From positions 1 through 64,000 of IMG/VR virus record IMGVR_UViG_3300037502_002220: DNA of 64,000 nt; one strand, written 5' to 3'. The stretch's first letter is position 1, and each line of letters starts with the position of its first letter. Below, piece after piece: positions 28,691-55,637 of the stretch. The notes under the pieces are model-generated. The model saw nothing but the letters and a program-made list of their open reading frames with translations, was not told where the DNA came from and did not search any database. The stretch comes from a virus. The position numbers and the translations under genes are program-made.

Positions 28691-28692
28691 TA

Positions 28693-31208: not shown

Positions 31209-31215
31209 ATAAAAC

Positions 31216-34007: not shown

Positions 34008-37000
34008 ATGGCTAAGATATTAACTCCTCAAGATCTAAGTACAGTAGATCGTGGTATTCCACAGACATCTATTAGACCATTTAGCTTTCGTGAAGCAGCG
34101 AACTTAGCTACTGGTGGTATAGGTCCACCTTCACCTATGAAGATACGAGATGCTTCTGAATACGAAGGTGTAGATGTTAGCTTTGCTCTTCAAGGTGGTG
34201 AACGTGCATTACAAGAAGGTAGAGCACTACGTCAAACTAATTTAGAATTAGTAGGTAAAGGTCTAGGTAATATTGCTGAGAACGTAATCTTTGAAACACT
34301 TAAGTTTCCTGGTACTATAGCTAGTGGTATAGGTATTGTAACTGGTAACGAGGGTATGGTTAATAATCTATGGTTACAAGGATTTGATGCTTTACAGAAA
34401 CCACTAACAGAACTTACTGAAGTATATGTACCACCTAGTGTTCAAGAAAAAGGTTTATGGGGTCAGTTATCTAGTCCTTATTTCTGGGCGGGTGAAGGTG
34501 CTGATGCAATAGGTACTATGTTGTCTATGATGATACCTGGACGCTGGTTAGCTACATTTGGTTTAGGTGCTAAAGCCGCTAAAGGATTAGCTAAAGTAGG
34601 TAAGCTAGGTGAAATTGCTGTAGATGGTTCTAGAATACTAGAGACTACTGGGGATGCTAACAAGATAGGTAAGTTCTTAGTTAAAACACTGGGGTCTACA
34701 GGTAGAGGTTTAGACTTTGGTAAACTAGCTAGGAACATAGACTCTGGTGTAGCAGTAGCTACTAACACGCTATTAGAATCTTCTGCTGAAGCTTTAGACA
34801 CTTACGAGAGCTTATTAGCTCAAGGTAAAACTCCTGAAGAAGCTGGTGAAGCTGCTACTAAAGTAATGATGTTGAACATGGGTTTACTTACTGTGTCTAA
34901 TACATTACTTGAAAAGTATGTGTTTAATGGATTCAACAGGTTACCGTCTGTAGGTAAACAACTTACTACAGCACTTAAAGGTGGTACTCCAGTATTTAAA
35001 CCTTTTCAACAAGCTGGTATAAAGTTTGCTGCTGGTGTATTAGCAGAAGGCGTTATTGAAGAAGGTCTTCAAACTTCGTTCCAACAAGAAGAAGGTGATC
35101 CTATACGTTCCTTAGAAAGATATTTTGAAAACTTTCAAAGTTTATTTAGCGCAGACCCAGATATAGAATTTGGTAAAGCTGTAATACTAGGTAGTTTACT
35201 GGGTGGTGCTGTGGGTGGTATTAGTGGATTTTCTGATGTCCGAGAACAAAGAGCAACACTAGAAGGTAGACCAGAGCGTGTACTAGCTAAAGGTAGGTTA
35301 GGTACTCTACAAGGTATGCTTGGGTATAAAGCTAAGCAAGCTGAGAAAGGTCTTATTGATATATTTAGACCTAGCTTTGAAAGTCTTAAGACAGGTAAAG
35401 ATATTTTAAAGAACTCTGTAAATGAAAAAGGAGAGTTTAACGTAGAAGCTTTGAAAGATGATTCTATTATGTTTGCATTATCAAACATGGTAGATGATAT
35501 CTTATTGCAGAATAACGGTGATGTACAAGCATCTAAGACACAAGTAGCTGCTAGTCTTAGTGAACTAGGTATGTCAAATGCAGCTATAAAGAGCTTAGTA
35601 AATGGTCTTATACCTAGTGATATAAATAATTTATCTGGTGAGCAAGTACTTAAGCTTATTACACTTAAGAAAGATAACACGTACTTTTCTAGGTTTGCTG
35701 CTAACCCTGCTGGTTTTGAGATGCTAGATGCACATATCGATGATATGGTAGATGCACTTGAAGAAAGATATGAGATGAACACTGGCGCTAAGCTATCTGA
35801 TGAGAAAAAGAAAAGTATTAGTACTGATCTTAAATCTAAAGCTAAGCGATACAAGAATATGTACGAAGCTGCTACTACGTTTAATAATAACGTACGTTAT
35901 GGTATTGAAGTAGCGCAAGAAGATGCAGAAGATTTTAATGAGTTTATACGTATGACACAAGGTCAAACGTTAGGTTCTATGACCTACATAGAAGAACTTC
36001 GTACGATTGCTGACGAGATTGAAAAAGAAACTAACGCTGAACAACAGAAAATTAATACAGCTAAGAGTACGTTAGAGAACGCTAAAAAGGATGGTGACCC
36101 TGATTTAATTAAAAGCAGAGAACAAGATCTAGCTAAAGCAATTAGTGACGCTAATGCTGCAGTACCTAACTTTAACGATAAAAGAAAAGACTTAGCTAGG
36201 ATTCGTGAGAACGTAGCTGCTCGTGAAAAGAATATTATTGAGTTTGGTACTGAGCCTAAAGTTAGAGAAAAGTGGGAAGCATTCTTAGAAGTTAAGCGTG
36301 AAAAGAAAAAAGCTACACAGCAATATTTTGACGGTGTAGAAGTTGATACTAAGATAATGCCTGCTATATACAAGATTATCTACGATCAGCTTGTTAACAA
36401 AGGATACACACCAGAGCTAATAACAGATATACCTTTTGTTAAGATAGCTGTATTCCATGCAACGTATGAAGGTGATCTATATACCTTTACACAGACCAAA
36501 GATGGTTTTAATGTTCGTAATCACAGTGAACAATCTGATGAAACAGTAGCTAACTGGAAAGCATTAATAGAGAAGTTTCCTAAGTTGACTATACTTACCG
36601 TTGATCAATATAACTTAGAGAAGCAACGTATAGATAAAGAGATTGCTGATCGTAAAGCTGAACTAGAACAACAAGCTGCTATTGAAGCACTTACTCAGTT
36701 ATCTATTGAGCTTAGACAAGAGTTCAATAAGATAGAAGCTAGCTTGCAAAGTGATTACAATACGCTGCAAGGTGTTAAAGAAGAATTAGCTAAAGCTAAA
36801 AAAAGACTTAAGAGTGTTCAAGCTAAACTTAGACGAGATAGTAAAAAAGGCATACCTGTAGGAGAACTTCAGGATACTGTAACTGAACTTAAAACGTTAG
36901 TTAAACAACTTGAAGCTCAGCAAGAGAATACAATTAGAACTATCGCTAATTTAGAAAATGTTAGAATTAGGTTACAATCTGAGCTTAATGGTATTGCTAG

Positions 37001-40000
37001 CTTAATTAATAGAATCCAATCTGGACAACCTGTTCAGTTTACTAAAGAAGCTTTACGTCAAGCTGCAACAACAGAAGTTGGTTTAGCTACTGGTGAGTTC
37101 TTAACAGAAACTTTAGATTTTTTAGAAACAAAGAATGCTGAAAAAACTAAATCAGCGTTTTTAGAAAAGTTTGCTGATTATCAAGTTAGGTTAGAGCGAC
37201 AGATGATGAGTGTATCTAACGAACTTACACTAGCTGTACAACTATCAGATGAAGTACGAGATCTTATTAATTTAATTACTGAGTACATATCTGAAGTTGA
37301 AGCAAGTCCTGCCGTAAAGTCTTTATCTGAAATTCCAGACGATGTTAAAGCTGAGTTAGAAAGTAAGTTTCCTGGTGTACTTAACGCTATGGATAAAGCT
37401 TTAAAAAGCAACAATCCAGATGTTGTATTAAGATTCTTAGCTAACTTAGTAAATAAAGTTAAAGATCAGCACAGTGAAACCTATGTAGAGGTACTTAAAG
37501 ATTTTGCTAAGTTGCTACAACCGTATGTAAACTTATCTGCTGAAATAAGCTCTGACGTACTTAGTAACAGAGCGCAAGAGTTAGTAGATATGATAGATAA
37601 AAATGATACGTATGTTAAAGGACTTCAAGCATTACGTAGGTTTTCTGTCTTGATTAAATATCAAAGACAGTTAAGTAAACTTAAAAATCAAATACTTAAA
37701 GGTTACTCACCTAAAGAAGATCCGCAGATAATACCTGATGTTGAAACACAAGATGTTACAGGTGACCCTACTTTATTTAGTAGTGAAGAACAGAATAGAA
37801 AAGTACTTTCGTTATTTAATACTTCTGGGTTAAATATTGAGTACGATAATGACGGTAATGATGTACGTGCAGATATTCTCAACTTAGGTTATACATTACC
37901 TGTACCTTCACAATCTGATATTACAAGAAACTTCTTTCAATGGTTAGATAGTAGTGATACTGGTAACTTTAAGGTGATACCTTACGCACCAGAGTTTAAC
38001 GATACAGACTTTGATGATATTACAGATCCTGAAACAGCTAAGGTACTTAGAGATTATATTGCAGGTACTCCTCCTGATGCTCGTGCAGAAGCATTGTACG
38101 GTGTTGTTATAGAAGAAGTTGATGGTGCACGTATGCTTAAGATGTATAACGGTAAACCTTTGATTAATTCTATGATGCGTCCGCAAACTAAGTTTCCTAG
38201 CAATAGAAACCCTAGAATGGCTAGACGTGCGTACATAGGTTTATTTTTAAAAGATGTATTAGGTTGGACATCTATACCTTCAGATAAAGATTTAGTAAAT
38301 ACTAATAATTATAATTTAATTAAATCTAGTATTGACAAATTAGAAAAATATGGTATTTCTATACCAGATCCTAAATCATTAACATCTCGTAGTTTTTACC
38401 ATATGATAGAATCTTTTGCGTTAGTATATACGCAAATGAAATATCAGCAAGGATTTAATGAGCTGTTGTCTAAGACTAGAGAACTAAAAGGTAGTGATTT
38501 ATCTTCGCGTAAATTATTAGAAACTACTGGTATTAGTAAAGGATTTCAAGTAGTAGCTAAAACTATTAATGGTGAACCTGTACAATTTGATTCTGAGAAC
38601 ATGGAGTTAGAATATACTCCTGCAGGTAACCCTAAGAACTTTGATGTACTTAAAGCTAACTTTGATGGTGTAGCTACATTAAACGGTGTTAAGTATGATG
38701 CTTTACAACCTGGTCGTTTGTACATTAAAAAACATGATAGCAATACGTTGATACCTGTAGAAATGGGCATGTTGTCTAATAACGAAATAGATGCTATCTT
38801 GTACATGCTTAGTATGTACGCAGATAACAAACGTTCATTAAGACAGATGATACCACAATTAGATGGTAGTGTTAGAATTAAAAATACATATATTAAATTA
38901 TCTAATATGTCTATACTACCAGCTACTAAAGACAGAGTTAGTTTAATATCTATGATAATGAACTGGGGCTTTAAAGTTAAAGGAGACCCTTCACCGTTTG
39001 ATATTTATTTAAGTAAAGGTTCAGTGATATTTAACGATTCTTCAATATCATTAAATGCTCTTAAGAAAGCATACTTAGAAAACGATGCAGCTACTTTACA
39101 ACCATTAATAGCTTTTCTAAGAACAAAGCGTGTTAACGCTAATTATAACTTACTTAGTGTAGCTAATAACTTTTTTGAGTTTACGGTAGAGAGAGATAAA
39201 AAAACTAAAAAACCATTTGACATTAAAGCTGTACAAAAACAAGGATCATACGCTAAACACATATTAGATCGTGCTTCGTTTTACGGTGCACCTAAAGATG
39301 TGTTAGATGCAGCAGGATTGCCTAGTTCTGCGCAGAAATATATTATGTTTAAAGACTTTGATACTAAAGTAGATGTAAATGAGTTTAGAGCTAAGGCACC
39401 TAGCCCTAAACCTAAACCAGTATTTACACTTAAACCTAGTGGAGTTAGTCCTGTTATAAATGCTTTAAGAGAAAGTAGCTCTATAACAGATTTTAGAACT
39501 AGAGCAGCTTCTTATCTTACAGATCCTGAAAGTGTAGGATTGTTTAGTAGGATATTAAAAAAGTTAGAAAATGAAAGTGGTCCTTTGTTTGAAGCAGAGA
39601 AGCTTTTAGTACTTAATGATAAAAGTATTGTTAGTAGTAAAACAACTGCAGACGTTACACCTGAAGAAAGTTCTGTTACAGTAAAAGATATCTTAAGTAG
39701 TTTGGAACAAGAAGAAACTCAGCAAGGTGAAGAGGGTGGTACTAACATTACAATGAAAGAAGCTTTAAGTACGCTGTGGGAACAAGTAGGTGGTAAACCT
39801 GAAACTCAAGAACAACCTGAAGCTGGTGTTACTGAGCAAGAATCTCAACCTCCAGTTGAAGAAACTAAACCTGACTTTAAAACTATTGAACCTGATTTCA
39901 GTAAAGTGTCTGTATCACTTGATATAAGTAGTATAGACGACACTGATTTCTTAGCTATATTTAAAGAAATTAATTCAGACGGCTTTGGTAAATTTGCATC

Positions 40001-40568
40001 TCAAAGTGATGAGTGGATGACTAGGTATCAAAAAAATAATGTAAACTCTTTATTTATTACAGCAAACGGCTTTGTAAGTATGGAGAACATTAGTAATGAT
40101 TCTATTGCACCAGGTAAAACATTTAATTTTCAAGGTACTGTAAGTAATACTTTAAACGAACGTCTTAGACGTAAATATCTATCTGTCACAAAAGATCCTA
40201 CATACAAATTAGCTATAGAAGAAGCTCGTAAACAAACTGAAGCTTTAATCAATAAACCTAGTACTGAACCTACACCTACTAATATTGTCGACGTATCTAA
40301 AATAGACATAAGAACTTATAAACCTGTAGTTGGAGATGTAATTGAAATGGAGGGTAAAGATTACACTGTTGTAAGTGTAAGTAAAACCGTATCTTTAAAA
40401 TCTGGTACAGAAACAAAAGTACTTAGAGTTAGTGCATTTAGACCTGGGTTAGATTCAAATACAATGAAGTTAAAAAGTAGGGTGGTTAAATCTGTAGCTG
40501 ATTACAATAAGATATTAAGTGATGCTATACAGCGTGGTATTATTGACGAAATAAACTGTAATAGATAA
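34008..40568 (+). CDS. Giant cargo/ejection protein (membrane-channel-like N-terminus, long coiled coil)
   Basis: 2186 aa; Gly/Ala hydrophobic segments, 'ESSAEA' and 'EGVIEEGLQ' motifs; single Cys at residue 2184. Confidence 0.75.
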   Translation: MAKILTPQDLSTVDRGIPQTSIRPFSFREAANLATGGIGPPSPMKIRDASEYEGVDVSFALQGGERALQEGRALRQTNLELVGKGLGNIAENVIFETLKFPGTIASGIGIVTGNEGMVNNLWLQGFDALQKPLTELTEVYVPPSVQEKGLWGQLSSPYFWAGEGADAIGTMLSMMIPGRWLATFGLGAKAAKGLAKVGKLGEIAVDGSRILETTGDANKIGKFLVKTLGSTGRGLDFGKLARNIDSGVAVATNTLLESSAEALDTYESLLAQGKTPEEAGEAATKVMMLNMGLLTVSNTLLEKYVFNGFNRLPSVGKQLTTALKGGTPVFKPFQQAGIKFAAGVLAEGVIEEGLQTSFQQEEGDPIRSLERYFENFQSLFSADPDIEFGKAVILGSLLGGAVGGISGFSDVREQRATLEGRPERVLAKGRLGTLQGMLGYKAKQAEKGLIDIFRPSFESLKTGKDILKNSVNEKGEFNVEALKDDSIMFALSNMVDDILLQNNGDVQASKTQVAASLSELGMSNAAIKSLVNGLIPSDINNLSGEQVLKLITLKKDNTYFSRFAANPAGFEMLDAHIDDMVDALEERYEMNTGAKLSDEKKKSISTDLKSKAKRYKNMYEAATTFNNNVRYGIEVAQEDAEDFNEFIRMTQGQTLGSMTYIEELRTIADEIEKETNAEQQKINTAKSTLENAKKDGDPDLIKSREQDLAKAISDANAAVPNFNDKRKDLARIRENVAAREKNIIEFGTEPKVREKWEAFLEVKREKKKATQQYFDGVEVDTKIMPAIYKIIYDQLVNKGYTPELITDIPFVKIAVFHATYEGDLYTFTQTKDGFNVRNHSEQSDETVANWKALIEKFPKLTILTVDQYNLEKQRIDKEIADRKAELEQQAAIEALTQLSIELRQEFNKIEASLQSDYNTLQGVKEELAKAKKRLKSVQAKLRRDSKKGIPVGELQDTVTELKTLVKQLEAQQENTIRTIANLENVRIRLQSELNGIASLINRIQSGQPVQFTKEALRQAATTEVGLATGEFLTETLDFLETKNAEKTKSAFLEKFADYQVRLERQMMSVSNELTLAVQLSDEVRDLINLITEYISEVEASPAVKSLSEIPDDVKAELESKFPGVLNAMDKALKSNNPDVVLRFLANLVNKVKDQHSETYVEVLKDFAKLLQPYVNLSAEISSDVLSNRAQELVDMIDKNDTYVKGLQALRRFSVLIKYQRQLSKLKNQILKGYSPKEDPQIIPDVETQDVTGDPTLFSSEEQNRKVLSLFNTSGLNIEYDNDGNDVRADILNLGYTLPVPSQSDITRNFFQWLDSSDTGNFKVIPYAPEFNDTDFDDITDPETAKVLRDYIAGTPPDARAEALYGVVIEEVDGARMLKMYNGKPLINSMMRPQTKFPSNRNPRMARRAYIGLFLKDVLGWTSIPSDKDLVNTNNYNLIKSSIDKLEKYGISIPDPKSLTSRSFYHMIESFALVYTQMKYQQGFNELLSKTRELKGSDLSSRKLLETTGISKGFQVVAKTINGEPVQFDSENMELEYTPAGNPKNFDVLKANFDGVATLNGVKYDALQPGRLYIKKHDSNTLIPVEMGMLSNNEIDAILYMLSMYADNKRSLRQMIPQLDGSVRIKNTYIKLSNMSILPATKDRVSLISMIMNWGFKVKGDPSPFDIYLSKGSVIFNDSSISLNALKKAYLENDAATLQPLIAFLRTKRVNANYNLLSVANNFFEFTVERDKKTKKPFDIKAVQKQGSYAKHILDRASFYGAPKDVLDAAGLPSSAQKYIMFKDFDTKVDVNEFRAKAPSPKPKPVFTLKPSGVSPVINALRESSSITDFRTRAASYLTDPESVGLFSRILKKLENESGPLFEAEKLLVLNDKSIVSSKTTADVTPEESSVTVKDILSSLEQEETQQGEEGGTNITMKEALSTLWEQVGGKPETQEQPEAGVTEQESQPPVEETKPDFKTIEPDFSKVSVSLDISSIDDTDFLAIFKEINSDGFGKFASQSDEWMTRYQKNNVNSLFITANGFVSMENISNDSIAPGKTFNFQGTVSNTLNERLRRKYLSVTKDPTYKLAIEEARKQTEALINKPSTEPTPTNIVDVSKIDIRTYKPVVGDVIEMEGKDYTVVSVSKTVSLKSGTETKVLRVSAFRPGLDSNTMKLKSRVVKSVADYNKILSDAIQRGIIDEINCNR

Positions 40569-43500
40569 TGGCTTGTCAATACGTATTTCAAGGTAAGACG
40601 TATAATAAAAGATCTATCCTTAATGCAATTAAGGATGGTGATGTTGTACTTGGTGATATCCAAACAGCACGTGAGAACATACGTAAGATTCTGAACATGA
40701 ACGATTCTGAAATAGAACTTGTTCGTGGTCTTATTGATAACGATGCTGTTGGTGCATTTACACAAGATGGTAGGATACTATTATCTGATCGCTTTGTACA
40801 AGGTGAAGAATATCACGAAGCATTCCATCGTGTGTTTAGAACTGTATTTAGTGATGCACAGCGTAAAGCATTATTTAAAGAGTATCGTAATCGTGAAGGG
40901 TTCCAAGAATCTTTAGATCAGAAACGTAAACTCTATCCTAATCAAAGTACAGAAGAACTTATCGAAGAAGTACTTGCGGATGAGTTTATGATGTATCAAT
41001 TAGCTAATGGTAACTATGTAGTACCTAAGCCTATACAGAATGCATTTCAGCGTATTCTAAATTTTATTAGAAAGTTACTTGGACTTAAAGATATTGCTGG
41101 TGTATATGAAGCTATACGTGCTGGTAATTACAAAAGCGTAAAGCCTAAGTTTTATAAAAGTACTAGGTTAGCTAAATCTAAAGTAAAAGTTGGTAATCTT
41201 GAGTTAGATGTATTTCAGAAAAATGAAATACTAGATGCAGTTATTGCTAAGTTTAGTACTTCGTTTATAGAAGAAGTTAGCGATAAAGATTCTTTTGAAG
41301 ACGTAGATATTAACAGGCATTTAATCGATGGTATAGAAAATGTAATAGATCTTTTGCGAGAAGATTTTACAGATCCAGATAAAAGAGATTTAGCAACTGC
41401 TATTGAAAATGATGCACTTAACTATAGAATTTTAGAAGATGACTTTACTGTAGAAACAACTATAAATGCTAACTCACCTATTGTAGAAGAACTAACATTA
41501 CGCTTAGATCAACTTAGGATTAAAACTAAAGAAGAAACGCTAGAGCCTGAAGAACTTAATGATGAAGAAGCAGTTACTAATGACCATCCGTTTCTAAAAG
41601 CTAGCTGGGAAACAAATCCAGAAGATAACATTACACTAGCTATGAAGATCTTTGCTACTTCAATAGAGAGTTCACAGCTTAGTGATTACTACGCACTACC
41701 TAAACCAGAGCCTTCTGGTAAAGTAGTTATGACGTTGTTTAAAGTACTTAAGAATGCTACACATAACTGGGATGTAGTAAAGAACTTACTTGAAAATAAC
41801 GTAGATACCAATCCTTGGATACAAACTATTCTAGATCGTCTGCAAAATAACTTGAAGTTACGCACACAGTTTGTGCGATCGTTTGTAAAAGCACACTACG
41901 ATATGTACAGTGGTATCTGGGTTAAAGAAGAACTACAGGTACAACCACTAGAAGATGAAACTAGGTTTATATCTTTAATACGTGAAGTTAAAGATTACAT
42001 TAACATACTTGAAGATAGAGAAGGTATAGTTAGTCCTAGTTTATCAGATCGTAATCTCTCTACTAAAGAGAAGTTTCGTATCCTAACAGGTATAGAACTA
42101 TCTGATGAAATATTAAAAGGTACAATAAATACTAGCAAAGGTCTTACAACAGGTGAAGAGATTGCCGATAATATAATTGCTGTTACTCGTACAAACATAA
42201 ATGAAGGAGTTCAGTACAAGGATCTATTTAATAACAAAGTATATAGACCTACTGATAAATCAGAAAAACCTGAAGATTATTCTGTACTAGGTAACTTACG
42301 TCGTCTTCTTAATGAATACAATAAATATAGACCTAGTGAACAAGGTGTAGTACTTAATCATAATCGTGATAGAGTGTGGCCTTGGACTATGCACACATAT
42401 CAAAAGCAAGTAGAGTCTGCACTTAACCTAGTTGCTAACTTAACACCTAGTGAGCTAGCAACTATTGACTCTGGTATAACTGAAGGTGGATTACTCCCTG
42501 AAGAAGTTAATATGCAAAAGCGTATTGCTAAACTTAGAGAGTTGCTACCTTGGTTTGTAGATTACAAGTTTAACTTTTACGTAGATGAAAATGGATTAAC
42601 TAGAACTAATTCATTAATACTTAAGCGTATACTAGAACAAGGAGATACTTACTCCATATCTATATTTAGTGGTATGCGTTTAGATGATGGTACTGATGCT
42701 AAGGATCTACTTACACCAGATATGATACCTATGTACATTAGGTCTATGAGTGGACTAGAACCTAAGTACATTAGCGTTAAGCATGGTGATCGTGGTGCTA
42801 TATTTGCTGGTGGTTTTGAAAGTAAAGTAAAATATACAGATAATATAACTGCACAAGACTACTTAGCTTCACTGCTACTAGATGAGATTAACTTAATCCG
42901 AGAAAGCAGTAAGTACAGTGTATTTAAAAAGATGGGTGACGGTAACCTTAAGCTATTTGAGTTTTTAAACATTGACGCAAATGAACTACAAAAGTTAGTT
43001 AACGATACTACATTGACTTCAAACAAGTTACACAAGAAGTATAAAGAAAGTTTTGATAAGCATGTAGAAGGGATTGAAGCAGACTTTAAAAACTTATTGA
43101 AAGAAGTCTACGCTAACTTTGACGGTAAAAGGTTTGATGATGTATTTACTAAACCTGGAGAAACAAAAGTACCTTTTTATACTACAGCAGAGGTGTTTAG
43201 TATGTACAATAACGATGAAGAAATTCTTATCAAAGAAGTAGTTAAGAATTATTTGATACACTTCTACGAAGATATGCGTGTATTTGTAGGATACGCAGGT
43301 GAGTATCCTAACATGGTAAACTTGTTTAAGCGTATTCAGAGCTTATCTTCTTCTGGTACTCCACTAGTTAATGACGGTGAACTTAATAGCTACATTGATA
43401 ATAAAAATCAACAGGATGCGTACGCAATTATTACAGGTAATGAAGTTGAAATGCGCACGTATGGTGATCGTAACTTAAAGCAAAAAGGTAAGATTAAAGA

Positions 43501-46500: not shown

Positions 46501-48169
46501 TTTGTATTTACTTAAGCTAAGAAGTAGGGGTGATAACGCGTTACATCTTTACGATCTGTATCAAAACTTTGAAGATCTTGTAGATTCTGTTGTAGGTACA
46601 GAGTATGAAGCAAGTATGCACGAACTTGTACGTAAACTTATTGCATATAACGTATACACTACTGGATTTGGATTCTCACCATTTACATTAGATGATGCAG
46701 TATCACCTAGGTTAGTTAATAAACTTTACAAAGAAATAGATTTCTATAACACTAAAATTACAGAAGAAGATGTTACACAGTTTGCTAACTTGTTTGTAGC
46801 TATGAACCCTAATGTGTTTAGGTTCACGATTAAACCTAAGAAAAATGAAACAAACTTTTTTAGAAATGTGAAGTATAAGTGGGACGGTACTTTTACAGCT
46901 AATGAAACAGACGTAACTATCTTAGGTAACTCGTACGCTAAACGTTATGATAGTAAAGTACCTAAGTACTTAACTATTCCTGTTCCACGTGGAACTCAAG
47001 CTCAAGTACAACCTACGCCTGTAACTGAACAACAGATTCCTGATGAACTTAAATGTTCTACACCTGGGTCAAAAGCAGAAGAAGGTATGTCTTTTGGATT
47101 TACACCAGGTAGTAACTGGGAGATAATCAAAGATTTTAAAGGACCTTCGCATGAATACGGTGGTATAGATATTATGGTTGAAGGTGGTACTATACGTATG
47201 TCTGATAAAGAAGGTGATGTTAAAGCACCAGATGGGGTAGTTATATCTAAAATTATGTCTAAGCTTAATCCTAAAAACTGGGGTGTTACTGATTATACAG
47301 ATAAAGGTAGTTTTGATGACGCATTTTTATCTGCGCGGAATGCTGAAGAAAAAGAATTTATGTATAAAAATAAAAGGTACACTACTGCGCAAAAAGGAGA
47401 AGATAGACCAGAGAGTTCTTTTAACTTAAGTAAGCCGCAAAGAGAAAGAATATACAATTCTGTGAGACCTGTAGGTTATCCTGCTGATGAAATGATACCT
47501 GCTGCTAAAAGATACATAACGGGAAGTAAGTTTTCAGATGCAGAAAGCGCTGAAGTAAGAACGGTTGAAGATGAAGATGCATGGGCATTTTTTATGGGAT
47601 TACCTCAGCAAAAAAATTCAGTAACTGAGTCAAAGTATAGACCTTCTAGCGCTAAAGATAAAAACACAAGATATTACACACTGAGAAATGCGTATCCAAA
47701 TTTTGATGAAACTGTTATTAATAACGCAGAAGCTGCTTTTACAGTTAACAAAAAATTAAACGCGGGTACTGTAAGAGGTGTTGAATCTTCATTTTTACCT
47801 TTAGAAAATGTAACTTTTTCTAAAGGTAAAGATGAGAGAGGAGATTATTATTCTATGTACGATGTGTATGATTTTAGCATTCCTTTTGAAGGAAAAATAG
47901 GAAAACCTTATGAAGTATATGACAGGGTTTATTATAAAGATTACGGAGATGGTGTTCGTAAACCTATGTATTATACCGACAATGAGCTTTTATCTTTAGA
48001 CGTAAATAAAAAGAATTTTGATACACTAGCGTTGCAAAAAGAATTATCTAACAGAGGTGTTACCTTTAAAAAGTCTGTAAAAAAAGATGGTTCTTTTGAT
48101 GGTATATTTGGAGAAGAAACTAAAGCTGCGTTGTTAGATTATCAGAATAAAAACAAACCTAAGAAATGA
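40568..48169 (+). CDS. Virion-packaged single-chain DNA-dependent RNA polymerase with N-terminal zincin and C-terminal extension
   Basis: Catalytic 'SDFDIDK' (45014-45028) preceded by 'GLRIPNQ'; N-terminal HEAFH...EEVLADEF zincin (40814-40828). Confidence 0.9.
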   Translation: MACQYVFQGKTYNKRSILNAIKDGDVVLGDIQTARENIRKILNMNDSEIELVRGLIDNDAVGAFTQDGRILLSDRFVQGEEYHEAFHRVFRTVFSDAQRKALFKEYRNREGFQESLDQKRKLYPNQSTEELIEEVLADEFMMYQLANGNYVVPKPIQNAFQRILNFIRKLLGLKDIAGVYEAIRAGNYKSVKPKFYKSTRLAKSKVKVGNLELDVFQKNEILDAVIAKFSTSFIEEVSDKDSFEDVDINRHLIDGIENVIDLLREDFTDPDKRDLATAIENDALNYRILEDDFTVETTINANSPIVEELTLRLDQLRIKTKEETLEPEELNDEEAVTNDHPFLKASWETNPEDNITLAMKIFATSIESSQLSDYYALPKPEPSGKVVMTLFKVLKNATHNWDVVKNLLENNVDTNPWIQTILDRLQNNLKLRTQFVRSFVKAHYDMYSGIWVKEELQVQPLEDETRFISLIREVKDYINILEDREGIVSPSLSDRNLSTKEKFRILTGIELSDEILKGTINTSKGLTTGEEIADNIIAVTRTNINEGVQYKDLFNNKVYRPTDKSEKPEDYSVLGNLRRLLNEYNKYRPSEQGVVLNHNRDRVWPWTMHTYQKQVESALNLVANLTPSELATIDSGITEGGLLPEEVNMQKRIAKLRELLPWFVDYKFNFYVDENGLTRTNSLILKRILEQGDTYSISIFSGMRLDDGTDAKDLLTPDMIPMYIRSMSGLEPKYISVKHGDRGAIFAGGFESKVKYTDNITAQDYLASLLLDEINLIRESSKYSVFKKMGDGNLKLFEFLNIDANELQKLVNDTTLTSNKLHKKYKESFDKHVEGIEADFKNLLKEVYANFDGKRFDDVFTKPGETKVPFYTTAEVFSMYNNDEEILIKEVVKNYLIHFYEDMRVFVGYAGEYPNMVNLFKRIQSLSSSGTPLVNDGELNSYIDNKNQQDAYAIITGNEVEMRTYGDRNLKQKGKIKEKVLIGPRVSYTEAEKENLAAIHKANLIKEGFPEDIAEKRAEEWVSVFDKYEEADGVTFTNMFFYREYKIRLGEWNQNMENAFQIELAILNQNTLNPEVFLAEGDRVFANRPTDLPVIRIKAFDLSNENAARVFNKLEPFTMLKPVYTGPVEHQGATVNGIRKTAFHVILPSMVFGTDKMQSIHDYMLRNNVDMISLDSATKKAVPSNVEDINVEIYSTNEDTFTILDTMYLKEQVKMSNDEKGRIKNATQSTTIVFTNIFEEDPRGFSKPKDYTGERPWNELTDEEKLAQSKVFTKHTKYKEALDAVVTMHMDRVKEDLGVVGDNITDIELVTEILRTNINVPSVRDALNYVTEAKSLDLLPSFNRIEPALLSIVSNEAVRIKRPGEMLAQYSVYGMDEVTISGVKSKRLQNYRIEGNVIRPAEIIVPLPKSMAAQLMKRFKTNNLVEAIQRYNSRDKKIIVKGLRIPNQQLSFNGIYEIKEFALPTMQNYIVLPSEIVPVSSSDFDIDKQQVYWPILDDRGNMVQTDEAGVYNRLLQAEIDLLLDPSNFHTLMAPVNEAWFSKDLFKDILIKRGEYTAEQLNSDEKLENAVIKFTFKEIGNIASQIRTAINMTQSKLNVGLMATNAKMYPVGQADSWKASSVVANEDDILIANLIPFEGDKQHFFALYDSDYRHITEIISTLMTSQLDGVKNPYAVALNIVKNSIGPMMFMVRRGMPINLIARIIASPVVTRYNTVTNLYKSNSAKARRIYPKTKGKSNVLNFMYDFSGKNAIENYLNEFKNRDRIVSSATVLKALSDKTLKTEDSLQVLAGYMYVEELAKAMLEISTAMTPDTKPLGNMSMVDVMSEKYKDFDNNFRRRAAMIDKDFKTGFLKPFYNAQKLYQLFGNLYFTRKDKLANYLTVELGTQVSAGAISVDDRARVKNTFVNDFKAYMFFKKLNESKEYKGKYTFDAIMTNSNLVDEIASIRQDETHPMSTNYLIQNLIPITGIATDPDGTTPLYLLKLRSRGDNALHLYDLYQNFEDLVDSVVGTEYEASMHELVRKLIAYNVYTTGFGFSPFTLDDAVSPRLVNKLYKEIDFYNTKITEEDVTQFANLFVAMNPNVFRFTIKPKKNETNFFRNVKYKWDGTFTANETDVTILGNSYAKRYDSKVPKYLTIPVPRGTQAQVQPTPVTEQQIPDELKCSTPGSKAEEGMSFGFTPGSNWEIIKDFKGPSHEYGGIDIMVEGGTIRMSDKEGDVKAPDGVVISKIMSKLNPKNWGVTDYTDKGSFDDAFLSARNAEEKEFMYKNKRYTTAQKGEDRPESSFNLSKPQRERIYNSVRPVGYPADEMIPAAKRYITGSKFSDAESAEVRTVEDEDAWAFFMGLPQQKNSVTESKYRPSSAKDKNTRYYTLRNAYPNFDETVINNAEAAFTVNKKLNAGTVRGVESSFLPLENVTFSKGKDERGDYYSMYDVYDFSIPFEGKIGKPYEVYDRVYYKDYGDGVRKPMYYTDNELLSLDVNKKNFDTLALQKELSNRGVTFKKSVKKDGSFDGIFGEETKAALLDYQNKNKPKK

Positions 48170-48351
48170 AACCTAAGCACATTGAAGTAGAAGGTGGTGA
48201 AATAGCTATACGTAATAAGAACGGTGATATAGCTATTATACCTAAGTATAAGAAACGTTGGTTGCAAAGTCAAATGCGAAAAGGGTGCCACTCTTGTATA
48301 GATGAATTTGTAAAAACACTACCTTCGTATAAAGATCTTAAAGATAAATAA
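48166..48351 (+). CDS. Small protein with EVEGGE and CxxC motifs
   Basis: 61 aa, ATGA overlap; 'IEVEGGE' and 'GCHSCID'. Confidence 0.7.
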   Translation: MKPKHIEVEGGEIAIRNKNGDIAIIPKYKKRWLQSQMRKGCHSCIDEFVKTLPSYKDLKDK

Positions 48352-48352
48352 C

Positions 48353-50746
48353 ATGGCTTGTCAAATTAAAAGAAAAGATAACGGTACTATAGATACTGTA
48401 CTAGCACCTAATGGTAAACCTAGTGTGTTATACAACTCACTTGTAAATGCTATTGCTAGCTCAGAAGTAACTAGGAACGTTATACAATCTGATCCTTATG
48501 TAAGTTCTGTAATGGATAGTGTATATGTAATGGATAACACTGCTGAAGAACTTGCACTAGCTGCTTGGAGTAAGGCGTACACTGTAGACTTTATAGATAG
48601 CTTTGGTAACTGGAAAGAAGATAAGCTACCTAATACAGATAGTAACGGTGAGCCTACTATAAACATGTTATTTCCAGAGATTGCAGATACTGGTGTTAAA
48701 CCTGGTGTATCTGAGCTGTTTGAATCTAATCCTGAGTTAGCTAATGTAGGCACACAAGAACAATACTCTGCATACCTAGACCAAGTGTTTCCAGATAGCA
48801 AGGTTAAAGACATCATGTATCATGGTAGTGATAAAACGTTTAATAAATTTTCAAAAGAATTTGCAAGAGCTGATAGACCTTATTTTTATTTTTCATTTGC
48901 TGAAGAAGCTAACATGTATAAAGAAGCAAGAGGAGGTTCTTATATTTACCCTGTTATTTTAAATGTTAAAAATTATGCTACAGGTTATACTCCTGATGAA
49001 TTAGAAATAGATACTGTTAATAATTTAATAAAACAAGGATATGATGCTGTTGCTGGTAGAGGTTGGACAACAAGAGAAGAAGTAGCAGTATTTGAACCAG
49101 AACAAATACACATATTAGGTACCCCACAAGACATAGAAGGGTTTAAAAGATTTGTATCTAAACCTACACAATCTGTTAGACTTTTTTCAAGTGAAGAGTA
49201 TTCTAAAAACACTCGTGCGTATGTAGAAGAAGTTGAAAGAGTTACCCGACTTATTGAAAATAAATTAAAGATTAAAGAAAAATCTTTTGTAGGTAAAACA
49301 ACTGACAAGTTTGTTGAAAAACAAGATTATTTAAACGATGTTTTAAAACAGCTATTAAATAACATAGGTTTACCTAATACTATAACTAGCTTAGAAGAAT
49401 TAAAAGCTGGGTTACAGGATGGTACAATCTTAAAATATATTCAGAAGGAATATGATTTTTACAAGCAAAAAACTATTAAGACAAAAGGAAATCTAAACAC
49501 ATTGAACTCTAACGTCAGAGTATTAAATAGATTTTTAAAATCTTTAGATATAAACGCATATTCTATAGAACAACAAGAGTTAATAAGAAAATCTTTTCCT
49601 GCACTGTTTGAAGATTTAGGTAGGTATAAATCTAAAGCGCAAGCACTGTCTTATTACAAGCAAGTTGTAAATACACCTAAGTTTTTAAATAAAGCTTTAA
49701 ACTTACAGTACGTTAAGACACAGTACTTTACTGCACAATCTAAGCTAAACAAATTTGAAAATTTATTGAACTATAACACATTGTCTCCAGAAGATTTTCA
49801 ATATAGAATATACAAAGTTGTTGAAAATGAGCTGGATAGGAGAAGTGAGTTTTTTGATTCTAATAAAATGCAAGCTGTTGTGTTAGCTGAAAAAGAAAAA
49901 ATAGCTAAGCAGACTTACGAAAAAAGTGTAAAAGGGTTATTAGAAAGATTTAGTAAAAATGAGAACACTGTTTCAGGTAAGATAGCTAAGGTATTTTTAG
50001 AACATCCTAATACATTAAACGCAATTAAAGCAGAAAACATAAACAAAACTATTTTTGGATTTGCAGGAGGAGAGTGGAAAGGAGACGGTACTTTAAATGT
50101 TAACTTTAAAGACGAACAATCTCTAAAGCACATATTGTTACATGAGTTAACACATCATTTTACAGTACCTTATGTTTTTACTTATTTAAAAAATCATTCT
50201 AACATAGATAAGTATGTAGGTTTTTCTGAAAGATTTCCTTCAGAAGAAGACTTAAAAGAAAGTATAGAATATTCTGTAAAAGAATTAACTCGACAGGAAG
50301 TAGATTCTATTTCTAAATTAGAAGATATTTACATTCATGTTTTAAATTTACATAAGCAAGGTAAGATACAATTTACTAACAGAGAGTTTTCTGCAAATCC
50401 TGAATATGGATTAGAAAATCTTTATGAGTTTATATCAGAGGTAATATCTAACCCGTATTTTGCTGCAGAGATAGCTAAGCAGCCTGGTTTGTTTAATAAA
50501 AAATCTAATCTTCTTAAAGATATTATTTATGCTATCTTTAAAATGTTTGGGATAAATAATAACAATTCTTTATTAGAAGATGTATATAACTTGTTTGAAG
50601 ATTCTTTTTTATATAAAGATGAAAAGTATAACTTTAAATCTTTAGTAGAATCGAAGTCAAGTTTTAAGTACAACTTACCTCAAGTTCAACAATCTATAAG
50701 TGATGAGTGGACTAACGTAAAAAATAACTGTCCTAAACTAATTTAA
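48353..50746 (+). CDS. Polyvalent cargo protein: ADP-ribosyltransferase (ART-PolyVal-like) plus zincin metallopeptidase
   Basis: 'MYHGS...F..F', 'YFYFS', 'YPVILNVKN', 'GYDAV', 'EVAVFEPEQI'; HELTH (50141-50155) and 'EFISEVISNP'. Confidence 0.8.
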   Translation: MACQIKRKDNGTIDTVLAPNGKPSVLYNSLVNAIASSEVTRNVIQSDPYVSSVMDSVYVMDNTAEELALAAWSKAYTVDFIDSFGNWKEDKLPNTDSNGEPTINMLFPEIADTGVKPGVSELFESNPELANVGTQEQYSAYLDQVFPDSKVKDIMYHGSDKTFNKFSKEFARADRPYFYFSFAEEANMYKEARGGSYIYPVILNVKNYATGYTPDELEIDTVNNLIKQGYDAVAGRGWTTREEVAVFEPEQIHILGTPQDIEGFKRFVSKPTQSVRLFSSEEYSKNTRAYVEEVERVTRLIENKLKIKEKSFVGKTTDKFVEKQDYLNDVLKQLLNNIGLPNTITSLEELKAGLQDGTILKYIQKEYDFYKQKTIKTKGNLNTLNSNVRVLNRFLKSLDINAYSIEQQELIRKSFPALFEDLGRYKSKAQALSYYKQVVNTPKFLNKALNLQYVKTQYFTAQSKLNKFENLLNYNTLSPEDFQYRIYKVVENELDRRSEFFDSNKMQAVVLAEKEKIAKQTYEKSVKGLLERFSKNENTVSGKIAKVFLEHPNTLNAIKAENINKTIFGFAGGEWKGDGTLNVNFKDEQSLKHILLHELTHHFTVPYVFTYLKNHSNIDKYVGFSERFPSEEDLKESIEYSVKELTRQEVDSISKLEDIYIHVLNLHKQGKIQFTNREFSANPEYGLENLYEFISEVISNPYFAAEIAKQPGLFNKKSNLLKDIIYAIFKMFGINNNNSLLEDVYNLFEDSFLYKDEKYNFKSLVESKSSFKYNLPQVQQSISDEWTNVKNNCPKLI

Positions 50747-50758
50747 AATTATACAACT

Positions 50759-51250
50759 ATGATGTTAGATAAAGAACTATTAGAACTGTTTAACTACAGG
50801 ATCAACCAGGAAGAAGCTAGTGCTAGGTTATATCTTAAAATGTCTATACACTTAAATGACGTAGGATATTTTAACGCCGCTAAGTTGTGGAAGAAGTTCT
50901 CAGAAGAAGAACGTGAGCACGCAGATATCGCACGTAAGTATTTACTTGCACTAGACATTGAACCAGAGACTAGAGATATTATTGTACCTAACAAAGAGTT
51001 TAACGGTCTAGATGGTGTTATTAACGCTACACTAGAACATGAGTATGAAGTTACACAGCAGTGTGAAGACTTAGCTAAAGCTTGTCTTAAACAACTGTGT
51101 TTTAAATCATTCTCTATTGCACAAGAATATATTAAAATACAAATACACGAGCTTGAGGAATACCACGACATGAAGAATAGATTAGATCTATTTGGTACAG
51201 ATCCTATTAGCTTACGTTTGTATGATAACGAACTCAAAGATATGTTATGA
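50759..51250 (+). CDS. Ferritin (non-haem, FtnA-like)
   Basis: 163 aa; 'N.RINQEEAS..LYL.MS', 'SEEEREHA', 'LEHEYEVT' and 'Q..E..E' ferroxidase ligands. Confidence 0.9.
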   Translation: MMLDKELLELFNYRINQEEASARLYLKMSIHLNDVGYFNAAKLWKKFSEEEREHADIARKYLLALDIEPETRDIIVPNKEFNGLDGVINATLEHEYEVTQQCEDLAKACLKQLCFKSFSIAQEYIKIQIHELEEYHDMKNRLDLFGTDPISLRLYDNELKDML

Positions 51251-51642
51251 GCTGCGCACCCTTTAGTGATCCACTGATGAACGCATTATCATATCTATAT
51301 ACAAATAAAGCTATAGATAAGGATATGCGCATCAGAACTAAACGCATAGACTTCTACTTGAACATCCTTGATAAACAAGCTGGTGTCAAGCTATTTGATA
51401 TCATGGAAGATACACTAGTACCTATCCAAGAGAACTTTAATACTATGCGTGGTCTAGAGCAAGCTGATGAAGTAGCACCAATACCGTCTTATACAGATCG
51501 TATTGCAGAAGGTAGATCAGAAGCTAAGGAAGTGTGGAATAACTCTGATAAAAAACTACCTTCTGGTTTTGACGAAGATCAGCGCATGTACTTAGAAGAA
51601 TTATTTAATGAAGGTATATTAGAACTTAACTGTACGTTATGA
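51247..51642 (+). CDS. Small cargo adaptor-like protein (Cys3 and Cys129 only)
   Basis: 131 aa; ATGA overlaps at both ends. Confidence 0.7.
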   Translation: MSCAPFSDPLMNALSYLYTNKAIDKDMRIRTKRIDFYLNILDKQAGVKLFDIMEDTLVPIQENFNTMRGLEQADEVAPIPSYTDRIAEGRSEAKEVWNNSDKKLPSGFDEDQRMYLEELFNEGILELNCTL

Positions 51643-54600
51643 GCTGTAAAACACCAACGTTTGAAGAACTAATGCAAGCTGTTAAGAACAGGATGTTCTT
51701 AAAGATAGCTAAAGAAAAAACTCAAGACGGTATTGTAGAAGCACTTAAGTTTACCAGTGATGTTCTTCAATTACGCCAGCAGAATGTAAATCCTAAGAAC
51801 GTAGGTGATGATACTTCTCGCTATACGTTAATAGATCCTAGTGCTGGAGATACTTCTGTGTTCTTATCTAATCGTGTAACAGATAGAGTAGCTAGGTACT
51901 ATCGTAAGATATTTGAGAAACCTAGTAACCCTAATACTGCACAAATGGAGTACGGTACTGCTGTACATAAAGTTATGCAGAATCTGTTAGAAGGTAACTA
52001 TAACAACACGCTAGATATTAATGCTGTGTATGCAGCTCAGGTAAACACACCGTACAGCTTAACGTTGGAACAAGTTCAACAGTTAAATAGCTATGCTAAA
52101 AAGCTTTTAAAAGATATCGACGCACAACAACAAGCTATTGACCCTAAAGGTACTTTTAGAATAGCTGTTGAAAACGTAGTCGTAGATCCTGTTAAAGATC
52201 TAGCTGGTACAGTAGACTTAGTAGTAGTATTCTCAGATGGTACAGTAGGAGTCTATGACTTTAAAACAATGTCACCAAAGTCTAATGTCATAGAAAGAAA
52301 TATGTTTGGTCAAATTACCAACGTAACTGGTAGAGACTTTGTAGCTGCTACTACTAGAACAGGTTGGAGTATGCAGATGAACTCCTATCGTGATACATTA
52401 CTAGAATACTACGGTGCTAAAGACGTTAGGTTTACTAGGATTATTCCTATGTTTATGAACTATACGTTAGATGATAATAAGCAAATTACTGGTCTTAGAG
52501 AAATTATAACTGAAGCTAACTTTGAACAGCTATCACCTAGATCTGTAGGTGTAGAAAAGTTTACTAACGCAGCTATTAACGAGTTTCTAAAGACTAGGTA
52601 CGAGTATATAGAGCAGTTAAATAAACAAATACAATCTGCTTCTAGATTAGAGCGTCCTAAGTTGTATCAACAGCTAAACCAAGTGTATGACTCTATAGAT
52701 ATGTTTGTTAACAACATGGATATTACCATGCTGATTAACGATGCACTTGCTGTATCTAAAGGTACTTACGAAACACTAGCTGAACTTAAGGAAGCATATA
52801 CATTTGTTAAAGCTATAGTAGATCTACAGCGTAACTTATCTGATACTACAGAAGCATTTGATATTACCTTTGATGCTGACGTAATAGATACACTAGCTAA
52901 GAATGCAGCAGTACTACATGAAAAGTATATCAAGTTGATTCTTGATGGTGTTGAAGGTAGATACGGTAAGCTTAATGTAGAAGGTGGTGAGATACTACTT
53001 AGTGAAGATGATCTACTTACACAGATCTTTAGCACTACCACAGAATCTCAGAACCCTATTGTAAGATATGCACAAGATTTATTTCAAGGTAGTTACAATT
53101 ATCAACGTAGAGAATTTAGAGATTTTGATGAAGCATTAGCTAGTGTAGAGAAACCATTAATAGAATGGGCTAAGTCTAGAGGTGAAACGTTAGCAGATGT
53201 ATATAAGTATTTACTTGATCTTGAAAACGGTAAGTTCTATGGTAGAGTAGATCTAGCATTTATTGAACGTGCTAATCAAGAACGTGATGCTGAGAACGTA
53301 GAGTTCTTTACTAAGAATTACGAGATAAAAGATAAGAATGCTAAAGGGGAAACGTATAAAGAATGGTACAATCGCAACATAAAAGAACTAACGCAAGTAC
53401 TTGAAGCTAGGTTTAAAAACTTAGATGAAAATCAACGTGTAACTGCTGTACAGCGTGCGCTTGATAATTGGCAGAGTAACAACGATTTAAAGATAGAAAA
53501 CGGTATACCTAGATACCCTAAAGCTTGGTTGAATAAACACAACAGTTGGCTTAAGATTAAACCAGGAGTACTTGCTGCTAATCAATCTGAGCAGTATACG
53601 TTCATGAAAGCTAATAAACCACTGCTAGATTATTACGAGTTCTTGCGCGATAGTGTAGCTAAGTGGAGAGGAGAAACTAGCTACAAACTTATAGATAGTT
53701 ATTTGTTCTATCCTATGGTTAGAGCTAGTGCTATTGAAAAACTAGGTAGGACTAATGCTTATGATACATTACTTACAGACATTAAAGAAGTACTAGAGAT
53801 CAAACAAGATGATCAACTCTTTGGTGTATCTGAAATTAATGACGATGGTACTATGGTAGAAGCTAAGCAGATACCGCTGTACTTTACACAACCGTTTAGG
53901 AACGCTGCTGGTGGTATAGATACATCGCAGATGAGTACAGATATCAGTGCTAGCTTTAGGTTAATGGCTAAGTCTGTGTACAATTACAAGTACATGAATC
54001 AGATTGAAGCTGATATACTAGCACTGCAAGATCTTCTTAAGATGGTCAACTACGAAGAAGGTGGTTGGGGTAAGAAGGTAGTTGACTTTATGAACAGTGT
54101 AGCTAAGAAAGATAAAACAGAATCTGGTTCTATGACCGATACTGTATTTAAAGCACTTAGAGACTATCACCTATATGGTATTAGATTACAGCCAGGGTTT
54201 AATCCTAAGTTTGTAAAAGCTGTAGATAGTGCGATGCAGTGGTTTACACTTAGGTCATTAGGTCTAGGTATCATACCAGCTACTACTTCTTATGTTGCTG
54301 GTCAAGTAAGTGCTAGGTTAGAAGCTGTTAAAGGTCAAATATGGGATACTGAAAAGTGGAACTTAGCTACCAAGCTAATGGCTAAAGAATCTAAGAAGTA
54401 TCACGGTATAGGTTTTTTCTTTGGTGTACACAACGAAGATATGCTACAAGATATCTTACGCCAACGTGTAGGTGGTGTATCTTCAGTACTAGGTAATACG
54501 CTGTACAATAACAATCTTAATAAGTACGTAGATCAGCGTTTGTTAATGGCACCGTGGTCTTATGGTCAAGAACGTTTAGATAATCACATTGCTGTAGCAA

Positions 54601-55637
54601 TGGCACACAGCTATGGTTTTGATAGCAACGGTAATGTAAGATTATTGACTAATCTACCACAAGAGAATCAAAAGAGTGTATACGAACGCATGATCTTTGA
54701 TGAAGCTAAAGGTAGCTTTACTATCGAAGGTCTTAATGAAGAACAAACTTCTAGGGCTATTATACAGTTTCAACAAGCTGTTAGAGCTGGTCAAAAGCGT
54801 GTTACTGGTACACTATCACAAGAAGATATCGCATACTGGCAAACTACGTTAACAGGTAAATTAGTAATGATGTTTAAATCTTGGATGCCTTCTATCCTTA
54901 AAGAAAGATTTGGTGCTACTAGGTTTAATGACGTACTAGATGTAGTAGAGCAAGGTAGATATCGTGCTGTATGGGAGAATAACGAAATAGAAGATAACAC
55001 AAACACACTGGTATATTTCTTACATACTACTAAGAATACAGCAGCGTTTGTAGTTAAGAATCTATTAATGACAAATAGTATTGCACGTAGGTTTGGTGCT
55101 AAGGTTAAGCTAGATGATACTAAACTTAGAAAACAGTACGCTGCATTTCTAAAGAAGTATGAGAAGTACCCTGGTATGCTAGAGAAGGTACCTACGTTTG
55201 AATCTTTTGTGCAAATGAAAGAAGGTCAAATACGTGCTGCTATTGGAGAGTTAGAAGTTTTAATACTACTTTCAGCAGCTATATTCTTGTTAGGTTCTGA
55301 TTTTGATGATGACGGTGAACCACTGTGGTCTGAAACTTGGGTAGCACACCAGATCTTTAAAGTACTTAACCGTACTAAAACAGAACTTAGCTTTACATAT
55401 AATGCAACAGAATACGCTAAGCTAGTAGCTAATCCTATACCTCTTACTGGGTTATTGACACATGTAATTAAGCTACTTGGAAACACAATAGATGAGACTG
55501 GTGATACATTACTTGGTGAAAATAATCAACGAGACAAAGCAGAAAAGTTACATTATACTACAGGACTTATTCAAGGTATGTATCAGCTTAGGAAATTTTT
55601 TGATGTCCTTAGCGTTGATGAAGCAGCTACTCGTTAA
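51639..55637 (+). CDS. Large cargo protein with N-terminal PD-(D/E)XK nuclease domain
   Basis: 'YGTAVH', 'E.....LAGTVDL......VGVYDFKT', 'QMNSY'; C-terminal 'GKLVMMFKSWMP...ERFG' typical of terminal crAss-like cargo proteins. Confidence 0.8.
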   Translation: MSCKTPTFEELMQAVKNRMFLKIAKEKTQDGIVEALKFTSDVLQLRQQNVNPKNVGDDTSRYTLIDPSAGDTSVFLSNRVTDRVARYYRKIFEKPSNPNTAQMEYGTAVHKVMQNLLEGNYNNTLDINAVYAAQVNTPYSLTLEQVQQLNSYAKKLLKDIDAQQQAIDPKGTFRIAVENVVVDPVKDLAGTVDLVVVFSDGTVGVYDFKTMSPKSNVIERNMFGQITNVTGRDFVAATTRTGWSMQMNSYRDTLLEYYGAKDVRFTRIIPMFMNYTLDDNKQITGLREIITEANFEQLSPRSVGVEKFTNAAINEFLKTRYEYIEQLNKQIQSASRLERPKLYQQLNQVYDSIDMFVNNMDITMLINDALAVSKGTYETLAELKEAYTFVKAIVDLQRNLSDTTEAFDITFDADVIDTLAKNAAVLHEKYIKLILDGVEGRYGKLNVEGGEILLSEDDLLTQIFSTTTESQNPIVRYAQDLFQGSYNYQRREFRDFDEALASVEKPLIEWAKSRGETLADVYKYLLDLENGKFYGRVDLAFIERANQERDAENVEFFTKNYEIKDKNAKGETYKEWYNRNIKELTQVLEARFKNLDENQRVTAVQRALDNWQSNNDLKIENGIPRYPKAWLNKHNSWLKIKPGVLAANQSEQYTFMKANKPLLDYYEFLRDSVAKWRGETSYKLIDSYLFYPMVRASAIEKLGRTNAYDTLLTDIKEVLEIKQDDQLFGVSEINDDGTMVEAKQIPLYFTQPFRNAAGGIDTSQMSTDISASFRLMAKSVYNYKYMNQIEADILALQDLLKMVNYEEGGWGKKVVDFMNSVAKKDKTESGSMTDTVFKALRDYHLYGIRLQPGFNPKFVKAVDSAMQWFTLRSLGLGIIPATTSYVAGQVSARLEAVKGQIWDTEKWNLATKLMAKESKKYHGIGFFFGVHNEDMLQDILRQRVGGVSSVLGNTLYNNNLNKYVDQRLLMAPWSYGQERLDNHIAVAMAHSYGFDSNGNVRLLTNLPQENQKSVYERMIFDEAKGSFTIEGLNEEQTSRAIIQFQQAVRAGQKRVTGTLSQEDIAYWQTTLTGKLVMMFKSWMPSILKERFGATRFNDVLDVVEQGRYRAVWENNEIEDNTNTLVYFLHTTKNTAAFVVKNLLMTNSIARRFGAKVKLDDTKLRKQYAAFLKKYEKYPGMLEKVPTFESFVQMKEGQIRAAIGELEVLILLSAAIFLLGSDFDDDGEPLWSETWVAHQIFKVLNRTKTELSFTYNATEYAKLVANPIPLTGLLTHVIKLLGNTIDETGDTLLGENNQRDKAEKLHYTTGLIQGMYQLRKFFDVLSVDEAATR

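Follow-up and report, generated by a model that had tools for sequence, protein, structure and literature searches.

Terminal cysteines point to a probable head-to-tail chain of virion cargo proteins in a crassvirus

The stretch of DNA analyzed here (the window, 64,000 nucleotides) comprises positions 1 to 64,000 of the IMG/VR virus record IMGVR_UViG_3300037502_002220, and includes, at positions 34,008 to 55,637, a block of genes for five probable cargo proteins, among them a virion RNA polymerase (RNAP), in which cysteines are rare and lie almost exclusively at protein ends. The arrangement of these cysteines, in the window and in related crassviruses, suggests that the five proteins form a head-to-tail chain that is most likely linked by disulfides, a reading to which we assign a probability of roughly 0.7.

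Cysteines of the five probable cargo proteins

Open reading frames (ORFs) were translated and Cys were counted in each ORF; all positions are those of the whole window. The count given in the first-pass annotation of this DNA was confirmed: the five proteins contain 8 Cys in 6,979 amino acids (aa), all listed below, and no others, against ~100 expected at the Cys content of 1.45% in control genes from related loci. Seven of the eight lie no more than 5 residues from a protein end; by an arithmetic estimate, the odds that seven of eight randomly placed Cys would land in the ~100 terminal positions are ~1 × 10−12. The eighth, C2163 of the RNAP, is located 370 residues before the end of that protein in this window, so that the statement that all Cys are at the ends holds for seven of them only. 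The first protein has no Cys near the N-terminus and the last has none near the C-terminus, as had been claimed and as comparison with relatives also indicates. The 1322-aa protein encoded just upstream of the block (24192–28160) contains 12 Cys. The members of the putative chain are as follows.

34008–40568, + strand: first member, 2186 aa; sole Cys C2184 (codon 40557–40559), at −3
40568–48169, + strand: RNAP ORF, 2533 aa; Cys C3 and C2163
40568–47056, + strand: virion RNAP body; C3 (40574–40576) and C2163 (47054–47056)
47057–48169, + strand: 370-aa appendage, fused in frame after C2163
48353–50746, + strand: middle link, 797 aa; C3 (48359–48361) and C793 (50729–50731)
51247–51642, + strand: middle link, 131 aa; C3 (51253–51255) and C129 (51631–51633)
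51639–55637, + strand: last member, 1332 aa; sole Cys C3 (51645–51647)

Below, Cys near the N-end and the C-end of a protein are referred to as N-tags and C-tags, respectively.

Conservation of the pattern across crassviruses

A profile search yielded 80 IMG/VR loci (designated by L and a number), in which ORFs were called crudely (first ATG, translation table 11). A common grammar was observed in about 80 related loci, in phages phi14:2 and crAss001 and in three gut Suoliviridae, whereby, in gene order, the first protein carries a Cys at the C-end only, zero to three proteins with Cys at both ends come next, and the last protein carries a Cys at the N-end only. In phi14:2, the sole Cys of gp67 is the last residue, gp66 has C3 and C2179, and gp65 has C3 only. 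In crAss001, the tags are a Cys at −3 in gp47, C5 together with a Cys at −9 in gp50, and C5 in gp49, the grammar being intact despite the location of gp47 on the strand opposite to gp50 and gp49. The three gut Suoliviridae comply at their single junction. The pattern is thus maintained throughout the Crassvirales. The order of the protein families is conserved across the loci.

The 188 proteins of at least 1,000 aa encoded in the 80 loci (455,424 residues) contain 66 internal Cys (0.0145%), that is, internal Cys are ~100-fold rarer than in the controls (1.45%). N-tags are present in 108 of 172 proteins of this size class compared to 9.5% of the controls, and C-tags in 101 of 172 compared to 15.5%; in this set, N-tags are found at positions 3 to 7 and C-tags at positions −1 to −9. 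A count of terminal Cys across relatives, suggested in the first-pass annotation, shows that the two kinds of tags do co-occur at adjacent genes: the upstream C-tag and the downstream N-tag were both present at 117 junctions and both absent at 104, and 23 junctions were discordant (Fisher p = 2 × 10−42; the loci are mutually related, so that such p-values overstate independence). Several of the discordant junctions have a Cys at −18 to −30 or involve Cys-rich genes beyond the end of the chain.

Automatic parsing of 77 loci produced 52 closed chains, 17 chains that were consistent until the end of the locus and 8 failures, which were judged by eye to be mostly artefacts of the parsing rules. 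Two-member chains were the most common among those that closed (26), followed by chains with three (21), four (4) and five (1) members. For the window itself, the parser ended the chain at two members, C2163 not being terminal. A chain of five members, with four links, is the longest seen and is that of the relative L001/L003, where the RNAP is 95% identical to that of the window, and, if C2163 counts as a tag, of the window.

Comparison of 27 RNAP homologues, with identities down to ~21%, showed that most of those measuring 2,000–4,300 aa carry exactly two Cys, the first at residue 3–6 and the second among the final 10 or so. A single internal Cys, located ~840–1,250 residues from the RNAP C-end, is kept by one sub-lineage (C1334 of crAss001 gp50; L009, L012, L015, L040, L041, L054, L058, L061, L064 and L065), and could have a conserved function in structure or catalysis. 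In L087 (cr56_1) and L088 (cr4_1), annotated cargo coding sequences are interrupted in frame by 7–38 stops under table 11, in line with a reassignment of stop codons in the late genes of such gut crassviruses.

Identity of the cargo proteins

The 2186-aa protein, whose C-terminal Cys and L284 do not vary in 10 relatives, is an orthologue of phi14:2 gp67 (BLASTP E = 8 × 10−31). The 2533-aa protein matches the polymerases phi14:2 gp66 and crAss001 gp50; the pattern [GS][SG]D[FM]D[IV]DK is present, D1483, D1485 and D1487 of the DxDxD catalytic motif are invariant, and C3 is nearly invariant among the homologues. The N-terminus of this protein (40568–41200) is a zincin-like HExxH domain, in which H83, E84 and H87 are shared by all of 18 homologues. 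The 797-aa protein combines an ART-PolyVal domain (PF18760, E = 1.7 × 10−7) with a region similar to phi14:2 gp65 and is classified as a polyvalent effector. The 131-aa protein, which has relatives in L001/L003 and L004 only and matches no known family, may be a short connector; its derivation as a detached C-terminal module of the RNAP was not demonstrable. The 1332-aa protein is an orthologue of crAss001 gp49 (BLASTP E = 4 × 10−11) and contains a PD-(D/E)XK nuclease-like domain.

Thus, as in the RNAP cargo module of crassviruses, gp67 and gp49 orthologues flank the RNAP, downstream of cargo-protein genes. With 48353–55637 as a DNA query, no match was found in the phage collection, and a protein search retrieved distant crassviruses only. 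Proteins gp67, gp66 and gp65 of phi14:2 (according to its records) and gp47, gp50 and gp49 of crAss001 (PMC10172136) were detected in virions. Because the window proteins are orthologous to phi14:2 gp67 and gp66 and crAss001 gp49 and gp50, all found in virions, the five proteins are most likely virion cargo that is packed and injected.

Fused proteins and shifted gene breaks

The loss of the Cys pair in fused homologues, which had been predicted, was borne out in fusions of the first protein and the RNAP (3,500–5,000 aa), where the junction contains neither Cys nor a recognizable tag motif and is instead a Cys-free stretch, often acidic or polar. The fusions always unite these two proteins, in unchanged order. 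Furthermore, the zincin domain, which the window has at the N-terminus of the RNAP, is C-terminal in crAss001 gp47; therefore, the gene break has shifted with respect to the domains, taking the Cys pair with it. It is the gene break, rather than the domain, that the tags follow. In one locus (L007:4862–13292), the RNAP is represented by three ORFs (1272, 954 and 437 aa), and neither of the two internal breaks has a Cys; stop-codon recoding, sequencing errors or true tagless splits may be responsible.

The joint loss of the pair on fusion is not predicted by models in which the terminal Cys make homodimers (C-to-C, N-to-N) or close single proteins into rings, and neither is the balance of N-tag and C-tag numbers that is observed in nearly every locus. 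The RNAP, the 797-aa protein and the 131-aa protein, each being doubly tagged, could conceivably behave in this manner, whereas the first and last proteins, with one Cys each, are unable to close into rings. Homotypic or ring disulfides were rejected on the tag balance, and we consider them very improbable.

Another conceivable explanation is that the Cys are a by-product of a DNA-level or translation signal at the junctions, or else processing or packaging marks unrelated to linkage. Many junctions indeed overlap by 1–10 bases (38 of 119). However, 10 junctions with an intervening gene are still tagged and both Cys codons are in use, so that a DNA-level cause is unlikely, and a junction signal of this kind was rejected on these grounds. 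The tags also persist when the partners are encoded on opposite strands, are missing from the junctions among the upstream Cys-free cargo genes and vary in position (2 to 7 and −1 to −30). By-product explanations of either kind accordingly receive next to no credence from us.

Comparison with other phages

In the cyanopodophage A4 (Anabaena phage A-4L), cryo-electron microscopy (cryo-EM) of the pre-ejectosome packed in the capsid revealed a disulfide that joins gp27 Cys1715 to gp26 Cys5, with the C-terminal helix of gp27 docked in a cleft of gp26 (PNAS 2025, PMC12002296). In the A-4L genome, the sole Cys of gp27 is at −3 of 1717 aa and the sole Cys of gp26 is at +5 of 1114 aa. Thus, A4 has two consecutive ejection proteins with the same end-Cys grammar, and one link that is physically validated. 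The differences are that A4 belongs to another family (Saffermanviridae), that it has one link compared to four in the window, and that its link involves neither an RNA polymerase nor an effector. The window proteins are otherwise Cys-free, like the A4 partners, and the facing end Cys are strictly terminal at three of the four junctions; at the RNAP junction, this is the case only in L003. No BLASTP match at E ≤ 0.01 was found between the chain proteins of the window and A4 gp26 or gp27, and the likeness appears to be one of mechanism, not descent. A general rule of terminal Cys is not described in the A4 paper (PMC12002296).

Because the A4 structure shows a disulfide between tags of the same kind, docking followed by locking with a disulfide is, by analogy, the most likely chemistry at the tags. 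The best explanation of the block is that the chain is a multi-link variant, with RNAP and effectors, of the linkage seen once in A4. The Cys near each C-end would sit against the Cys near the next N-end and form a disulfide inside the particle, yielding a quasi-linear thread of ~7,000 residues that consists of the first protein, the RNA polymerase, the ART effector, the 131-aa connector and the nuclease-like protein. The Cys pair would replace a peptide bond, such that lineages with two neighbors in one polypeptide have no junction Cys; the loss of nearly every other Cys would guard against wrong cross-links, given that the proteins must go through the tail partly unfolded, and the placement of the tags at the extreme ends would keep the junctions thin. 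The chain would then be expected to exit in a set order, and reduction in the cytoplasm to free its parts; in the proposal of the first-pass annotation, the channel protein would draw the rest through.

Among cultured crassviruses, phi14:2 gp67-gp66-gp65 and crAss001 gp47-gp50-gp49 are orthologous to the window proteins and follow the same Cys grammar. These modules have three members, whereas that of the window has five, the ART effector and the 131-aa connector being added, and also has the 370-aa appendage after one tag. Other inter-protein disulfides are present in crAss001 virions (PMC10172136). Terminal Cys are not mentioned in the phi14:2 preprint or the crAss001 paper (PMC10172136), the word 'cysteine' occurring in neither text, and a literature search found no paper describing a terminal-Cys chain in crassviruses. 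The claim that the system had not been described therefore stands for crassviruses, whereas the gp27–gp26 disulfide of A4 (PMC12002296) is a precedent for it elsewhere.

The Schitoviridae (N4 gp50 virion RNAP, DEV gp71–73; PMC11445570) resemble the window block in that giant injected proteins, including a virion RNAP, are strongly depleted of Cys. In these phages, Cys have been lost completely and a single polypeptide forms the RNAP, whereas in the window the cargo is split and a Cys is kept at each break; complete absence of Cys is thus not what is found in the window proteins, which retain the terminal ones.

Junction motifs and docking

A conserved module makes up the last ~35 residues of the first protein and terminates in G-E-I-x3-C-K, and the sequence of the RNAP opens with C-x-[YF]-x-[YF]-K-G-K-x-Y. 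Complex prediction, which the first-pass annotation had proposed for cognate ends, was performed for one pair of segments, 80 aa from the C-end of the first protein and 200 aa from the N-end of the RNAP, with custom alignments. The interface score ipSAE was 0.54, 0.55 and 0.08 (median 0.54), compared to 0.00 for the best control; the runs share at least 52% of the contacts, and the predicted local distance difference test score (pLDDT) of the partner is at least 42. Among 80 solved complexes, 58 attain the ipSAE pass mark, as do 2 of 110 mismatched pairs; just 7 of the 80 solved complexes pass at ipSAE ≤ 0.60, yet both passing mismatched pairs do. We therefore read the prediction as weak support for docking of these two ends.

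An N-end module, M-x-x-C-P-N-x-N-x-P-E-W-K-x-L, recurs on whichever protein comes after the RNAP (L021, L029, L048, L072, L075, L081, L086 and others; in L029, the carrier is a 328-aa ART protein). This recurrence hints at junction-specific docking modules.

The middle links range from 92 to 909 aa and belong to diverse families, with ART-PolyVal domains in three separate contexts (window/L003, L002 and L029). The repeated gain of tagged middle proteins, three of them ART, fits the idea that effectors can be plugged in via two Cys tags, and is no proof of it.

The proposal that the Cys pair off in gene order has fared unevenly: the head-to-tail grammar of N-tags and C-tags stands, and strict order may hold but is not imposed by it, any order of the three middle proteins being compatible. 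If C-ends were joined to N-ends without a fixed order, the result would be mixed chains, with the first and last proteins as caps, or rings made of the middle proteins. Unordered joining of this kind is compatible with the grammar, which restricts the two caps only, and with the short motif shared by the C-tags that precede the RNAP and those that precede the last protein. Nevertheless, it seems unlikely: the order of the protein families is conserved, the first protein and the RNAP keep one and the same order in every fusion, the protein after the RNAP, whichever it is, repeatedly bears N-end modules like C-P-N-x-N-x-P-E-W, and the A4 tail docks in a specific cleft (PMC12002296).

The RNAP junction

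The RNAP of L003 stops one residue after the Cys that matches C2163, and the 370-aa appendage is missing in this close relative. The end of the appendage resembles a peptidoglycan-binding domain (PG_binding_1, E = 1 × 10−4, just under the cut-off), and comparison of the appendage with the 431-aa upstream cargo protein revealed no significant similarity (best E = 0.13). A long extension likewise comes after the matching tag Cys in L004, and in L017 a module homologous to the appendage of the window comes after the tag Cys (BLASTP E = 2 × 10−30). In all three cases (window, L004 and L017), a K-A-x-x-G motif is found no more than 12 residues after the Cys and could be a cleavage site.

Evidence against the chain and wider implications

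Several points weigh against a covalent chain. No such bond has been observed in any crassvirus, and the comparative counts rest on the crude ORF calls and the mutually related loci described above. A few relatives keep 1–6 internal Cys. The flanks of the tags are highly variable, and the C-tags of different junctions are alike (G-x-[IL]-x3-C); therefore, no demonstrated feature enforces gene order. At the RNAP junction, 370 aa come after C2163, and unless the appendage is cleaved, the link at this point would be a branch rather than an end. Finally, assembly of the cargo takes place in a reducing cytoplasm, and the gut crassviruses live in anoxic surroundings, such that the stage of oxidation is hard to place.

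Production of the cargo in the reducing cytoplasm, along with the presence of a ferritin-like gene within the block, would be in keeping with a different role of the junction Cys, namely, that they bind a metal ion or merely stabilize a non-covalent dock, with no disulfide being formed. This appears quite improbable to us, considering that no conserved His, Asp or second Cys is found beside the tags and that A4 has a disulfide at the same kind of site (PMC12002296).

If the five proteins indeed form a disulfide-linked chain, the equal copy numbers of RNAP-associated proteins, their ordered exit through a narrow tail, the interchangeability of split and fused gene forms, and the way in which three crassvirus proteins do the job of the single 3,500-aa N4 polymerase would all be explained. 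Such a chain would also suggest a natural route for loading foreign proteins into phage particles. A broader scheme, which we advance tentatively and with more doubt than confidence, is a general redox-released 'protein train', in which any doubly tagged protein would be coupled in fixed stoichiometry, threaded behind the first protein and freed by reduction in the host; effectors would join by gaining two tags, and the four-link chain would make the lineage of the window the most elaborate example seen.

Neighboring and interleaved genes

Other features in and around the block are the following.

28373–34002, + strand: four upstream Cys-free virion cargo ORFs (105, 431, 406 and 928 aa), outside the Cys chain
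28373–28690: upstream ORF with a DUF5754 match
29988–31208: upstream ORF with a crassvirus cargo protein 1 domain (crAss_CARG1, PF25725, E = 9 × 10−7)
50759–51250, + strand: ferritin-like gene, 163 aa; internal Cys 102, 109 and 114; no end tags

The absence of Cys from the upstream cargo proteins, which the first-pass annotation had reported, was verified for all four ORFs. In the gap between the RNAP and the 797-aa protein genes (48170–48352), a 61-aa ORF overlaps the RNAP stop, carries E-V-E-G-G-E as well as a C-H-S-C motif, and is possibly left over from the inserted cassette.

The ferritin-like gene between the genes for the 797-aa and 131-aa proteins (PF00210, E = 1.5 × 10−19; rubrerythrin-like by a second Pfam match) is a real gene that the earlier list of the block left out. 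It has no end tags and therefore lies outside the chain. No evidence was found that this gene, or the DUF5856 gene that occupies a similar interleaved place in L009, L011 and L012, encodes a thiol oxidase, and the two show no mutual similarity. The ferritin-like gene is found at the same place in L003 (18429–18920) and L004 (8532–9023), and L002 and L013 have GIY-YIG homing endonuclease genes as the interleaved ones.

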